Part shown: positions 8,372-42,503 of the stretch, in pieces
How the letters are laid out: each line of letters starts with the position of its first letter
How positions within the stretch are numbered: the first letter of the stretch is position 1
NCBI GenBank assembly: GCA_965216325.1
Contig: OZ244160.1
Span: 864,001-928,000 of the forward strand
DNA: 64,000 nt
Source: Coraliomargarita sp.
GTDB taxonomy: Bacteria; Verrucomicrobiota; Verrucomicrobiia; Opitutales; Coraliomargaritaceae
Reading direction: 5' to 3'
Translations under genes and position numbers: made by a program
Notes under the pieces: generated by a model
Database searches by the model: none
Seen by the model: the letters and a program-made list of their open reading frames with translations, nothing else
Told to the model about the DNA's origin: nothing

Positions 8372-8381
8372 GTCTAAGTTT

Positions 8382-8454: not shown

Positions 8455-8471
8455 GTTTGCCAGTTTAGCAA

Positions 8472-38526: not shown

Positions 38527-40170
38527 ATGACTGCTCCCACTAGACTTGATGTCGGCGAATCAGCGTTTCAGGAGCGTCCTGAGTTACAGAGTCATTTGGC
38601 GATCGAGAGCTTCGTTGCACTTGCACGTAAGCCGGGGCGTGTATTGGTGACGGATTGCACCCTACAGCGCCGAGAGATGAAGGCTGGCTTTTTGTTGGCA
38701 CTGGCGTGGATGCTGTCTCGCTTGATCTTGCAGAAGACCGAGAAGCAACGAGTGGGCATTGTGTTTCCTCCGGGGATCGGTGGTTACATTGCCAACCTCG
38801 CAGTCGTCCTCGCGGGCAAGGTGCCGGTTAATTTGAATTTTACGCTTGGCCGGGCCAGTGCGGAGGCGTGCTTGCGCAAGTCCGACATTGATTGCTTGCT
38901 GACCGCACAGGCGGTGAAAGCAAAGTTGCCGAATTTTCCATGGCCCGAGTCTGGCTTGATCGATGTTGTGCTTGAGTTGCAGGCCATTTCGAAGCCGAAG
39001 ACGATTGCGCTGCTTGTGGCAATCTACGCGCTGCCGGCTAAGTTGTTGGCCAAGTTACTCAAGGTTCCGAGCCAAGGTGATCGAACAGAAGCCGGTTTGC
39101 TCTTTACGAGTGGCAGCTCCGGCGAGCCCAAAGGGGTGGTGCTCACACACCGCAATATCTTGGGGAATTGCATGCAAATTGATGCCTCCGGCCTGTTGCC
39201 TGCCGATCAGAAGATCATCGCGAACCTCCCGATTTTCCATAGCTTCGGCTTCACGGTTACGCTCTGGTATCCACTGCTACGCGGCTGCGGAGTGGTCTCC
39301 CTTCCGTCGCCTTTGGAGGTTAAGAAGATCGCCGATACGATTGAAGCGGAAGGTGCCTCTGTCTTGGTAGGCACTCCAACCTTCTTTAAGCCCTATTTGA
39401 AGCGCATTGCGCCCGAGAAGTTGAAGAGCTTGCGCTATGTGATCGCTGGAGCAGAGAAGACCCCGGATGGCTTTGCAGATCATTGGGAGCAAACCTTTGG
39501 TAGCACTTATTTGGAGGGCTATGGACTCACTGAAACCTCCCCCGTGGTGAGTGTGAATCTTCCAACCGCACCTAAAGAAGGAGACTATCCCGGTGATCCC
39601 GATGTGGGGAATCGCCGTGGTTCAGTGGGACGTCTGATGCCTGGGCAGACGGCCCGTATTCTGAATCCGGATACACTCGAAGATTGGCCGATTGACGCAG
39701 TTGGGGTGTTGGCTGTCAAAGGGCCGAATGTTTTCGGCGGATATTTAGATGAACCCGAGCGCACGGCAGAGGTCATGGATGGTGAATGGTTCATTACCGG
39801 TGACTTGGCACGTATCGATGACGATGGCTTTATTTACATCGAGGGGCGCTTGTCACGTTTCTCCAAGATTGCTGGAGAGATGGTGCCGCACGGCACGGTT
39901 GAGGAGTGCTTGAATCGTGCTTTTAATCTACTGGATGCTGAAGTGCCGATGCTGGCTGTTGCCGGGCGTCCCGACGAGTCGAAGGGCGAGGCTCTGGTAT
40001 TGTTGACTGCGATTGATCTCGAATTGGATCAGGTGCGCGAGAAGCTGGCAGCCGAGGGCCTGAGCAATCTCTGGATTCCCAAAGAAATTAAACGCGTAGA
40101 AGCCATTCCGACGCTGGCGACTGGTAAGCTCGATCTAAGAGCGATTCAGGTTGCTGCGCTTGAGGGGTAA
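38527..40170 (+). CDS. AMP-binding acyl-ACP synthetase (Aas C-terminal-like)
   Basis: [38 protein letters not shown]. Confidence 0.9.
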
Positions 40171-40227
40171 ATTCGTAGATGACATGGGCGTTTATCAGGA
40201 GCACGGAAGTGCTATGATGATAAACTT

Positions 40228-41316
40228 ATGCAAAACCCCACATCATCTACACGGACAACTAAGAACGCACTGGGCACAGTAATCAAGCTTGGCATTGACG
40301 TGCATGCGAGCACCTACGTGGTGGTCATGAAGATCGATAGCAGCGCCCCTTCACGCGCGAAGCGCATGAAGCCTGATATCTTCCTTCGATGGATTAAGCA
40401 GCTGAGCACTCAGTGCGAGCAGTTGCAAAGTTGCTACGAGGCCGGTCCTTTTGGTTACAGCCTGCACCGCAAGCTCAAGGCGATGGGCGTGAACAACCAC
40501 GTAATCCGCCCGATCAACTGGGACACTCATGGTAAGAAGGTAAAGACCGACGCGCGTGATGCGTTGCAAATGGTCTTGAGTCTGGACGGCTATCTGCGGG
40601 GCAATGACCGCAGCTTCAGTGTCGTGCGTGTGCCCAGCGAGCAAGAAGAGCGTCACCGCAGCCTAACCCGGCAGCGTGAAAGCTTCGTCAAAGAACGTGG
40701 CCGTGCGGCCAAGCGTGGTAAGAGTCTGGGACTGTATTACGATCAACCCTTACCCAGCGGCTGGTGGAAGCCGCGCAAATGGATGCAGCTACTCGAACAG
40801 CTCGACGATTTTTTGATCAGCCTGCTGGAGCCACTGCGGTTAAACTGCCTGCACTTTAGCGAGCTAATCAGCAACATCGAAGAACGTATCGAAGCGCTCG
40901 AGCCGGAACGGGTGCTGCCTAAAGGCATGGGGGTGGTCCTCTATGAACAGATCGAACGTGAGGTCTGCAACTGGAAGCGATTCAACAACCGCAAGGCGGT
41001 CAGTTCCTTTACCGGACTGTGCCCAAGCGAAGACACTAGTGCAAATCGGCGTTTCCAGGGCTCGATCAACAAACACGGCAGTCCCCGCCTGCGGCATATG
41101 CTACAAGAGTGCGCCTGGTTATTGATCCGGTGGAATCCCGGCTACAGTGGGGTGCGTAAATGGCAGGCCAAGCTCAGCGACGAGACCACCAGTAAGGCGA
41201 CCCGCAAGAAAATTGCCGTGGCCATCGCCCGGCAGTTCGCCGTGGACTGGTGGCGCATACGCACTGGCCAATGCAGTCTCGAAGACTTCGGACTGATAAG
41301 CAGACAAAACCCATAA
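40228..41316 (+). CDS. IS110 family DEDD recombinase/transposase
   Basis: LGIDVH, YEAG and KTDARDA (DEDD); GLCPSEDTSA (catalytic Ser region); AVAIARQ. Confidence 0.95.
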   Translation: MQNPTSSTRTTKNALGTVIKLGIDVHASTYVVVMKIDSSAPSRAKRMKPDIFLRWIKQLSTQCEQLQSCYEAGPFGYSLHRKLKAMGVNNHVIRPINWDTHGKKVKTDARDALQMVLSLDGYLRGNDRSFSVVRVPSEQEERHRSLTRQRESFVKERGRAAKRGKSLGLYYDQPLPSGWWKPRKWMQLLEQLDDFLISLLEPLRLNCLHFSELISNIEERIEALEPERVLPKGMGVVLYEQIEREVCNWKRFNNRKAVSSFTGLCPSEDTSANRRFQGSINKHGSPRLRHMLQECAWLLIRWNPGYSGVRKWQAKLSDETTSKATRKKIAVAIARQFAVDWWRIRTGQCSLEDFGLISRQNP

Positions 41317-41374
41317 GTCCGAACCAACGCTAAAGGCCTTCACCCTCTGATTTTAACGTTCTTTTGCAGTTTTC

Positions 41375-41540
41375 CTTTGTGCGGAGTGAGTCTGACCAAG
41401 CCCCTGTTGCCAACACAACGATTTTGTAGAATAGGCCACTTCGCCACCAAGCTTTTGAATGACCCAATGGATAGGTCATAGTGTGCTCTTCTGAGAAACA
41501 CTCAGAAACACGGATAGCAGGTTATCCCGGATCATCGAAA
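41375..41540 (+). ncRNA. putative bridge RNA (target-binding and donor-binding loops); transcript ends unknown
   Basis: Two stem/internal-loop/hairpin units (41381-41444, 41459-41535) whose loop strands match the target and the circle junction. Confidence 0.8.
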
Positions 41541-41759
41541 CTCCGAGGCCATGCGCGGTGGACGCTCAAAGACGATTGCAATCAAAACAAACCACTTATC
41601 TTATGTAAAAACACTCACACGCTTCTACACTCTTGACAGAAACGAACATAGCAGGGGCTTTGCTCGCCGTTTAGACAAGCTCAAGGCCCTGAGACTGTCG
41701 AGGGGCGGAGCCCTTCAATAGCATGTGCGCATCAGGTGCGGGTGGCGCAAGCACCACCC

Positions 41760-42398
41760 CTATGCCTTCACCTTAAACAAGGTGCCGCCTAGGCTACGGG
41801 GCTTCTGCTCGGAGGTGGCGGTGCCTTCGTCGCTGATCAGTTGGCCGTCTTCAAAGTAGCCGGGCTCTTTTCGCCAGTGCTTTTCGAGTTCGTCGTAGAG
41901 GTCGAGTAGCTCGTCGAGTTCGGTCACGCGGAATTCGATAGTTTTGGCATGTGTGGCGATCGGGTATTCTTTCATCACGACGTCGCCGGTGATGGTTTCG
42001 GTGATGCCGCGGGCTTTGTCGGCCATGGCTTGCACGCCGGGGACGTTCGCTGCACTGCCCGTTGGGATACCCGTCGTCGCTGTTGTAACGTTGCTCACTG
42101 CAGCGGCGTATTCGCCAGGCATCAGAGGGCGGGAGTAGTAGATGCGCAGTAGCGCATTGGCGTCAGTCATGACATTCACTTCAACGACTCGAAAGCCAGT
42201 GGTAATGTATTCCTGCTTAGAGATGGAGCGGAGCATGTTTTCACGTGCGAAGTAAGCTCGGGTTTCGCCCGGAAATTCGATGCCGAAGAGCTGCTTGTTA
42301 CGAATTGCGTTGGTGTCGACAGTGACTGCGCCTGCAGTGCTGAGGGCAGACAGTCCAAGTAGGAACAAGGGGGTAAATAGTTTGGTTTTAAGAAACAT
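41760..42398 (-). CDS. secreted hypothetical protein
   Basis: Signal peptide MFLKTKLFTPLFLLGLSALSTAGA. Confidence 0.8.
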   Translation of the reverse strand: MFLKTKLFTPLFLLGLSALSTAGAVTVDTNAIRNKQLFGIEFPGETRAYFARENMLRSISKQEYITTGFRVVEVNVMTDANALLRIYYSRPLMPGEYAAAVSNVTTATTGIPTGSAANVPGVQAMADKARGITETITGDVVMKEYPIATHAKTIEFRVTELDELLDLYDELEKHWRKEPGYFEDGQLISDEGTATSEQKPRSLGGTLFKVKA

Positions 42399-42503
42399 TA
42401 TGATTAAGTGTGCTGCGTATGAAACGTGCGGAAAGCAAATATGTTGCACACTTAGTAATTTGATTTTGTGTAACTATTCAAGCCTGTCGCCTATATACCT
42501 CTC

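Follow-up and report, generated by a model that had tools for sequence, protein, structure and literature searches.

A putative bridge RNA in an IS110-family element of Coraliomargarita sp. with a predicted target-binding loop matching GTAG-tagged REPs

Guide RNAs of IS110-family insertion sequences (ISs) have been described under two conventions. In the seekRNAs of IS1111-type elements the segment that pairs with the target's top strand precedes the one pairing with the bottom strand, and in IS110-type elements this order is reversed (PMC11187229); in the published account of IS621 8–9 nucleotides (nt) of the bottom strand pair with the 5′ side of the loop, and 4–7 nt of the top strand with its 3′ side (PMC11208160). 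The transposases quoted for the IS1111 group have 330–350 amino acids (aa) and a motif GL-P----S/T-G, and the elements carry subterminal inverted repeats of 7–17 bp; their promoter is described as forming only on circularisation, and the RNA as transcribed along with the mRNA of the transposase (PMC11187229). For ISPpu10, too, a hybrid promoter is reported to arise where the circle is joined (PMC12288879). Repetitive extragenic palindromes (REPs) are defined as short palindromic extragenic multi-copy repeats with GTAG at one end, often found with Y1 transposases of the REP-associated tyrosine transposase (RAYT) type; GTAG-tagged REPs together with RAYTs have been described, one verrucomicrobium being among the hosts (PMC3733652). 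Here we consider an IS110-family element that interrupts such a REP in a 64,000-nt stretch of the Coraliomargarita sp. genome (assembly GCA_965216325.1, contig OZ244160.1, positions 864,001–928,000, forward strand); this whole stretch is referred to as the window, and positions are counted from its first letter. Judging from sequence comparison, we consider it likely (probability about 0.87) that nucleotides 41381–41444 make up the target-binding loop of a bridge/seek RNA in an IS110 element of IS1111-type layout.

The element is flanked by ...TTCGTAG on the left and by GGGCTTTGC... on the right, and the two strands of the loop read these two flanks. The 5′ strand is the complement, and the 3′ strand a copy, of the transposase-sense strand, as the IS1111 rule has it; taken together, order and lengths of both matches fit the IS1111 seekRNA rule as well as the loop geometry of IS621. 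The initial annotation had placed the stem, the loop strands and the hairpin at coordinates that proved exact. Its labels of left and right guide are equivalent to the IS621 convention read on the minus strand, but in transposase sense the order is that of IS1111/seekRNA and not that of IS621. When rebuilt, the empty site reads TTCGT-AG-GGGCTT on the plus strand and AAGCCC-CT-ACGAA on the minus strand; the latter string, proposed earlier, is borne out by the flanks and by two empty paralogues, which have ∼76 nt of left flank in common with an occupied site and read cgttGTAGGGGCTTTGCTTGC. As these paralogues carry a single AG, the junctions are fixed. The one U-G wobble noted before is indeed there: U41424 of the RNA stands opposite the G that pairs with C40174.

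The genome, a single contig of 3.06 Mb, has nine copies of the element, eight of them identical and one with a single-nucleotide polymorphism, and the read depth of the element in DNA runs of the organism is ∼7× that of its flanks. The element has no terminal inverted repeats; all nine copies share one orientation and one position in the REP and have AG at either junction, so that the expectation of other genomic copies lying at related sites held for 9/9. The RNA is part of every copy. All nine have the right flank GGGCTT(T/C)GC... and a perfect 8-nt match to the 5′ guide. The left flank is GTAG in eight copies and GAAG in one; the base preceding GTAG is C in six copies and T in three, while the RNA has U there, the U of the 3′ guide tolerating G or A opposite. 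The variant copy (L009, 2070226–2071716, minus strand) carries C to A at the equivalent of 41509, whereby a G-C pair of the second loop's cap hairpin is lost; no other copy differs in sequence, and no other copy stands at an imperfect target (left flank GAAG).

Uninterrupted target sites have the general form xxx(C/T)GT-AG-GGGCTT...AAGCCC and represent heads of GTAG-tagged REP hairpins; the core dinucleotide is the AG of the GTAG tag. The consensus GTAGGGGCTT(T/C)GCTTGCG(A/G)AGCCCGC, or a longer variant of it, covers most unoccupied sites. Being palindromic and multi-copy, with GTAG at one end, the target qualifies as a GTAG-tagged REP. Unoccupied GTAGGGGCTT sites number 34 in the genome (8.5 expected from composition), in addition to the nine occupied ones; a full unoccupied target lies inside the window at 8460 on the minus strand. 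The target had been named initially as the GTAGGGG REP family of the host: the REP was rightly recognised, but GTAGGGG alone is not enriched (319 occurrences versus ∼573 expected), the enriched unit being GTAGGGGCTT. Likewise, the perfect TTGTAG matches claimed for the REP heads at 8380 and 13142 are present, while the right halves of these heads, GGGGCG... and GGGCTCG..., mismatch the 5′ guide; their stems are different, and they are therefore not full targets. GTAG-tagged palindromes with other stems occur in the window at 8380, 13142, 24910 and 24996 (GTAGGGGCGTTG..., GTAGGGCTCGTGC..., GTAGGGGCTCTGC...), which means that the genome holds several REP sub-families, only one of them fully matched by the guide.

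Some further observations concern these repeats. Among 16 Y1_Tnp matches in the genome, one (IS200/RAYT-like, 1680124–1680354) lies between two GTAGGGGCTT REPs (1679978 and 1680606; region 1679978–1680650) and is a candidate REPtron of the targeted REP family. In another region (1552474–1555409) three paralogous REP-bearing units, ∼580 and ∼880 bp apart, were seen, one occupied and two empty, which suggests a local tandem duplication around the REP. In a genome of the same genus both genes that flank the window copy are kept, with a different intergenic sequence holding neither REP nor element; thus it offers no direct orthologous empty site.

In the 64-kb window AAGCCCCT, the 5′ guide, occurs four times versus 1.8 expected, three of the occurrences being the guide itself, the element's own right junction and one REP. 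The decisive test of the guide matches against chance is covariation. Scanning species genomes by protein yielded 20 loci, and scanning metagenomes for the conserved motif of the second loop yielded another 20; both termini were placed by conserved motifs, and the loop strands of each RNA were compared with its own flanks. All but one of the first 20 loci came from Verrucomicrobiota or unclassified metagenome-assembled genomes (L021, titled Candidatus Sulfotelmatobacter, is the exception); the best relatives were from Thalassobacterium (72%) and Candidatus Synoicihabitans (55–65%). Across the relatives the right-end RNA could be aligned. One locus, L029, with a variant anchor GGATAAAAG, no right terminus found and no match to the covariance model described below, was dropped from interpretation. 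Comparison of the 5′ strand with the reverse complement of the core plus 8 nt of right flank showed agreement at eight or more of ten positions in 30 of 39 loci.

As the 39 loci include many near-duplicates, one representative per distinct guide was retained (n = 7): the window copy (AAGCCCCT, right flank GGGCTT), L014 (TGACCCCT, GGGTCA), L016 (TGACTCCT, GAGTCA), L021 (CGACACCGCT, CGGTGTCG), L045 (CCGCACT, TGCGG), L046 (CGGCCCT, GGCCG) and L022 (TAGCCCCATT, TGGGACTA). Guides and flanks of these classes agree at 39 of 42 non-core positions, a value reached by the true pairing alone among 5040 permutations; for the 3′ strand, six representatives agree at 22 of 30 positions, a value that 1 of 720 permutations attains, both figures being somewhat flattering since the representatives were picked by us as well-matching members of big classes. 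The 3′ guide varies together with the left flank through GTAG, GAAG, AAAG and GGAG classes, and in 17 of all 22 loci with a left flank the two core-adjacent positions agree. The most telling cases are near-isogenic elements of different sources, which we read from their sequences as natural reprogramming events. L011 (AAGCCCCT with GGGCTT) and L046 (CGGCCCT with GGCCGCC) share a backbone; L034 and L037 (TGACCCCT with GGGTCA) differ from L016, L035 and L047 (TGACTCCT with GAGTCA) by one C-to-U change in the guide and one G-to-A change in the flank.

A hold-out search was made with a covariance model alone (R1, built from 14 sequences and our structure) in 151 genomes sampled from the order, the genome studied here included, representing 90 genera. 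R1 matched nine genomes from eight genera. Seven of the eight new loci have a recognisable right terminus (L070 has none), and four match their flank over at least 7 contiguous nt: L068, L067 (a duplicate of L015), and two with new guides, L066 (GCGCCCT with GGGCGCA) and L069 (ACCTCCT with GAGGTAG; here the left flank TTTGTAG also fits the 3′ guide UUUUUGUAG). In L071 and L072 the flank matches with one extra base, and the left flank of L071, CCAAAAAG, fits its 3′ guide. Covariation of the loop strands with insertion sites in homologues, which the initial annotation had named among its tests, is thus observed in at least seven guide classes, with new classes appearing in hold-out genomes.

The same genome also contains a single copy of a second IS110-family element (L010). 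Its RNA, the tenth and a divergent one in this genome, scores 92.3 bits to R1, and its 5′ guide reads CUCCCCUCCU, precisely the AG+GAGGGGAG of its own flank on the right in reverse complement; this flank is a different palindrome, and the rebuilt target, CCCCTCCTcgtcaAGGAGGGGagtttt, resembles a terminator hairpin. From sequence and covariation together, the guide complementarities of the first loop are established, and the copies, the covariation and the conserved fold support the initial proposal of an RNA-guided recombinase whose specificity may be read from sequence.

The loop strands stand at fixed places of a structure that is itself conserved. For 41375–41450, RNAfold returned the stem, internal loop and cap hairpin described earlier both as the minimum free energy structure and as the centroid (−20.4 kcal/mol). 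RNAalifold on a plain MAFFT alignment predicted four structural elements (the first loop's inner stem, the cap hairpins of both loops and a long-range stem around the second loop), in which 18 of 24 pairs were compensatory. When 39 sequences (27 distinct) were aligned under guidance of the model, 88.2% of the cells were paired, compared with 77.0% in shuffles (0/500 as high), the share falling to 30–51% when partners are slid, and 31 of 42 pairs change on both sides; this alignment was fitted to the structure and is hence biased towards it. The stem enclosing the second loop and third hairpin (helix 4), found independently by RNAalifold, has 96.2% of cells paired and compensatory changes in four of five pairs. 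Weak pairs are the last one of the outer stem (unpaired in 18 of 27 cells) and the last one of the second-loop closing stem (17 of 27). Conserved G-U pairs show that the RNA strand is plus. R1 scores the RNA of the window at 143.8 bits; no Rfam 15 family matched it in 39800–42000 at E up to 1, and the sole match there, a snoRNA-like one at 41807–41858 on the minus strand, was taken as chance. Coordinates of all features are collected in the Table.

Table. Features of the element, of the predicted RNA with its loops, of the interrupted REP and of the second IS110-family element of the genome
Feature	Position	Strand	Remarks
Insertion sequence, IS110 family	40179–41654	+	1476 bp, counting one core copy
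Left target half, GTAG tag of REP	40175–40178	+	AG at 40177–40178 is the left-junction core copy
Left end, short	40179–40227	+	49 nt; begins ATGACATGGG, conserved among homologues; one arm of imperfect subterminal inverted repeat
Transposase/recombinase gene	40228–41316	+	362 aa; DEDD RuvC-like domain and Transposase_20 domain
Non-coding right end			338 nt, directly 3′ of transposase gene
Predicted bridge/seek RNA	41376–41573	+	∼190 nt; target loop, enclosing stem, donor loop, third hairpin
Predicted target-binding loop module	41381–41444	+	Helices 1–3; 84–97% of cells paired
Outer and inner stem	41381–41393 with 41433–41444	+	GCGGAGTGAGTCT with AGGCCACTTCGC
5′ guide AAGCCC-CT	41398–41405	+	AAGCCCCT; complementary to plus strand AG-GGGCTT (core and right flank, REP 5′ arm)
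Target-loop cap hairpin	41406–41419	+	GTTG-CCAACA-CAAC
3′ guide UUUUGU-AG	41422–41429	+	TTTTGTAG; identical to left flank and core; pairs with minus strand
Stem CACC with GGUG	41445–41448 with 41557–41560	+	Encloses donor loop and third hairpin
Putative donor-binding loop	41469–41527	+	Closing stem GGAUA 41469–41473 with UAUCC 41523–41527
Donor-loop 5′ strand	41474–41481		GGUCAUAG
Donor-loop cap hairpin	41482–41512
Donor-loop 3′ strand	41513–41521		GAUAGCAGG
Third hairpin, CGGA with UCCG	41528–41545	+	Helix 7; 7/7 pairs compensatory, 76% of cells paired
Outward-facing TTGACA	41633–41638	+	15 nt from right terminus; candidate −35 half of junction promoter
Right terminus CATAGC and core copy AG	41647–41654	+	CATAGCAG
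Rest of interrupted REP, long variant	41655–41713	+	GGGCTTTGCTCGCC...GGCGGAGCCC
L010 element	L010:463–1997, chromosome ∼2769470–2771004	+	Single copy, IS110 family
L010 transposase gene	L010:517–1671		384 aa
L010 RNA	L010:1691–1872		92.3 bits to R1

By its sequence the transposase belongs to the IS110 family in the broad sense. Pfam profiles PF01548 (DEDD_Tnp_IS110, 29.2 bits at a cut-off of 29) and PF02371 (Transposase_20, 52.9 bits) match it, and residues D24, E71, D108, D111 and S271 are invariant in an alignment of seven homologues, from which two Synoicihabitans copies with stop codons in the transposase frame were left out. The serine motif is GLCPSEDTSA (S-A), with S-A, S-D, S-N or S-G in relatives. 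Against solved structures the family profile gave ISCro4 at E 7e-5 and IS621 (8wt6) at E 0.025; a phmmer search of the transposase against PDB chains gave no match. The closest plasmid-borne relatives are at most 31.8% identical and are annotated just as 'IS110 family transposase' or not at all. Layout indicates that the element works like an IS1111-type one, whereas transposase length and motif lie outside the quoted IS1111 criteria.

One structure at the left junction involves the transposase gene. In a fold of 40165–40265, the flanking GTAG and ATGA...GGG (40175–40193) pair with transposase codons 2–8 (40232–40250) and enclose the start codon (free energy −30.4, z = −4.16, 0/200 shuffles equal); the hairpin is kept in ten homologues. 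It probably blocks translation of transcripts entering from outside the element, in which case transposase would be made solely from a promoter at the circle junction. By analogy to IS1111 and ISPpu10, the outward-facing TTGACA at the right end could be one half of such a promoter: 35 of 39 homologous loci have TTGAC among the final 30 nt of their right end, and circularisation would set TTGACA 17 nt before TGACAT of the left end.

We thus envisage that the element excises as a circle, which places the TTGACA before the left end, so that the transposase mRNA and the downstream RNA would be transcribed together. The ∼190-nt RNA, or a shorter processed form with the first loop only, would then bind the recombinase, as is suggested by homologous systems. 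Its strand AAGCCC-CU would pair with AG-GGGCTT of the plus strand, that is, the core and the first arm of the REP hairpin, and UUUUGU-AG with the minus strand of the left flank and core; in this way the exchange would be placed at the AG of the GTAG tag. The second loop would probably hold the circle junction as donor, AUAGC-AG against the right terminus and GUCAU against ATGAC, a step that the sequence comparisons bear out in part. Recombination would insert the element in one orientation, leaving AG at each junction.

A number of observations weigh against this interpretation. Reads mapped over 39700–42100 (two DNA runs, a marine metagenome and a sister metatranscriptome) gave no RNA cover, and a look-up of runs containing the element listed none of RNA; the same mapping showed neither empty-site nor circle-junction joints and no informative read ends. 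A scan of 40100–41760 for sigma-70-like promoters returned no site. The NCBIfam model NF033542, 'IS110 family RNA-guided transposase', falls short of its cut-off (137.8 versus 140 bits). Folding energy of 41376–41573 (z = −0.67) and of the whole right end (z = +0.86) is unremarkable, the first loop module alone standing out, and modestly so (shuffles −15.0 ± 2.7, z = −1.98, with 6/200 shuffles equal to it). In nine of the 39 loci (L017, L018, L024, L025, L026, L027, L029, L039 and L045) the 5′ strand agrees with its flank at fewer than eight of ten positions, several of these weak loci being decayed (the L020 and L026 transposase frames contain stop codons) or offset by 1 nt. The left flank of L068 does not match its 3′ guide, and in the hold-out locus L064 (G133:C3:793407–796602; 157 bits) the right flank CATACGGATT has no match to the common guide CUGACCCCU; this may be a rearranged or recombined copy. 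As for the second loop, hardly any variation is seen in it or in the termini across the family, so that its covariation comes down to one or two events (L021, L072); the right terminus is changed and the loop is not in L013, L014 and L015; and the 5′ strand of the loop has GUCAU followed by AG, although CU would be required for complementarity to extend through the core. In one sub-branch (L017, L018, L030, L010) the core position does have CU, with fewer matches further in.

These last points bear on an alternative that we consider doubtful, yet the most serious one: that only the first loop guides, as a seekRNA of ∼70–100 nt, the ends being recognised by protein through subterminal repeats, with the second loop as a protein-binding scaffold whose resemblance to the right terminus is a side effect of common ancestry or inverted repeats. 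For IS1111-type elements a short RNA with target matches alone is reported to be sufficient (PMC11187229). Subterminal inverted repeats seem to exist here in imperfect form: from position 6 the window copy has ATGggCGTTT versus ATGttCGTTT, agreeing at 14 of 28 positions ungapped (6/2000 shuffles equal this), and the repeat is stronger in L012, L020 and L038 (18–19/28), though it is not among the 25 longest repeat pairs listed for the element. The missing core complementarity of the 5′ strand and the changed termini of L013, L014 and L015 also speak for this alternative. On the other hand, AUAGCAG of the 3′ strand (41514–41520) matches the right terminus and core base for base along 7 nt, an identity kept in nearly all loci, and GUCAU of the 5′ strand is complementary to ATGAC, the first five bases of the element. 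Moreover, in L021 and L072 loop and terminus change together, loop GGAUAGGAG accompanying right end CATAGGAG (C to G in both), and the second loop shares the architecture of the target loop and is enclosed by a covarying stem. From these sequence relations the second loop is probably a donor loop.

Guidance by RNA as such could be denied if the protein itself recognised the REP hairpin, AAGCCCCT and TTTTGTAG being captured REP fragments or chance. A captured piece of REP would look alike, as AAGCCC is also the REP's own 3′ arm, and the mapped reads gave no RNA cover; but in homologues other strings stand in these places, fitting flanks that are quite different and not of REP type, with the stems around them preserved, L010 in the same genome behaves likewise, and the strings occupy fixed positions of a covarying structure, all of which makes this explanation very improbable. 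Equally hard to credit is that the structured right end serves mainly as a cis-regulatory 3′ untranslated region or terminator of the transposase mRNA, the guide-like matches being secondary. It is true that the RNA follows directly after the stop codon and that no promoter of its own was found; 41317–41654 has, however, no terminator-like sites, and loop sequences that covary with flanks would stay unexplained. We therefore retain the target-binding loop of a bridge/seek RNA as the preferred assignment.

As for the genomic surroundings, six copies are co-directional with the leading strand and three are opposite, with no clear bias. The GC skew of the chromosome flips sign near 1.1 Mb and ∼1.9 Mb, giving replichores of ∼0.8 and ∼2.3 Mb, and the whole plus strand is G-rich (28.0% G versus 25.3% C); the skew layout suggests a large rearrangement or an unusual arrangement of origin and terminus. 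To the right of the interrupted REP lies a convergent 229-aa open reading frame (41760–42449, minus strand) with no Pfam match; the end of this gene is conserved in the same-genus relative that has neither REP nor element.

Comparison with known systems, made here against published descriptions, places the element closest to the IS1111 group (ISEc11, ISKpn4 and the REP-targeting ISPa11; PMC11187229, PMC11208160). Shared with that group, as it is described there, are the short left and long right end, the RNA downstream of the DEDD gene, the order of guides, matches that overlap at the insertion point, what may be subterminal inverted repeats, the lack of an internal promoter, orientation-specific insertion (into REPs for ISPa11) and natural reprogramming among relatives, reported there and present here. 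The differences are a transposase of 362 aa (384 aa in L010) instead of 330–350 aa, a serine motif with S-A and not S/T-G, the imperfect inverted repeats and a host from the phylum Verrucomicrobiota. With IS621 of E. coli, of the IS110 group, the element has in common, going by the published account, a two-loop RNA, strands of 8–9 and 4–7 nt on opposite DNA strands that overlap at a 2-nt core CT (AG on the other strand) and tolerance of G-T/U wobble at natural sites. Unlike here, the IS621 RNA lies upstream in the left end, and the element is reversed relative to the RNA-target geometry; the protein studied here is only remotely similar. By our reading, the published REP target of IS621, ATCAGGC-CT-AC (GT-AG-GCCTGAT on the other strand), is the same GTAG-REP position as here.

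On this reading two elements of unrelated branches, IS621 with its RNA upstream and the present one with its RNA downstream, share the core on the same AG of the GTAG tag, and either 5′ guide copies the second arm of the REP itself. GTAG is the tetranucleotide cleaved by REP-associated tyrosine transposases. One could speculate that the shared AG reflects a dependence on REP biology (hairpin extrusion or RAYT nicking opening the site for RNA invasion) beyond a convergence on 'safe harbours'; we think this improbable. With no more confidence one could suppose that mispairing at the donor-loop core throughout the family (AG for CU), combined with the left-end hairpin in which the flanking GTAG takes part, is a built-in switch separating excision from insertion. 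ISPpu9 and ISPpu10 of Pseudomonas putida KT2440 are also described as multi-copy IS110-family elements in REPs, but the Ssr9 RNA downstream of the ISPpu9 transposase gene is reported to be dispensable for transposition and mobile as a separate module (PMC12288879), whereas the RNA here carries the target match and is present in all nine copies.

Our literature search found no IS110 bridge RNA from Verrucomicrobiota, and a structure search found no solved structure for IS1111-type bridge RNAs. Earlier publications already cover the class of mechanism, the targeting of REPs, the tolerance of wobbles and natural reprogramming, and the known principle is unchanged. Here the specificity of a likely RNA-guided recombinase could be read from raw sequence in a phylum for which we found no earlier description. 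The small divergent subfamily offers ten or more natural pairs of guide and target, pairs of near-isogenic elements that were reprogrammed and one genome in which the targets of two elements do not overlap; it may provide raw material for studies of IS1111-type bridge RNAs and for new recombinase tools. In comparison with the described systems, what this locus adds is the host phylum, the divergent transposase, its S-A motif variant and length, and the set of natural guide/target pairs.

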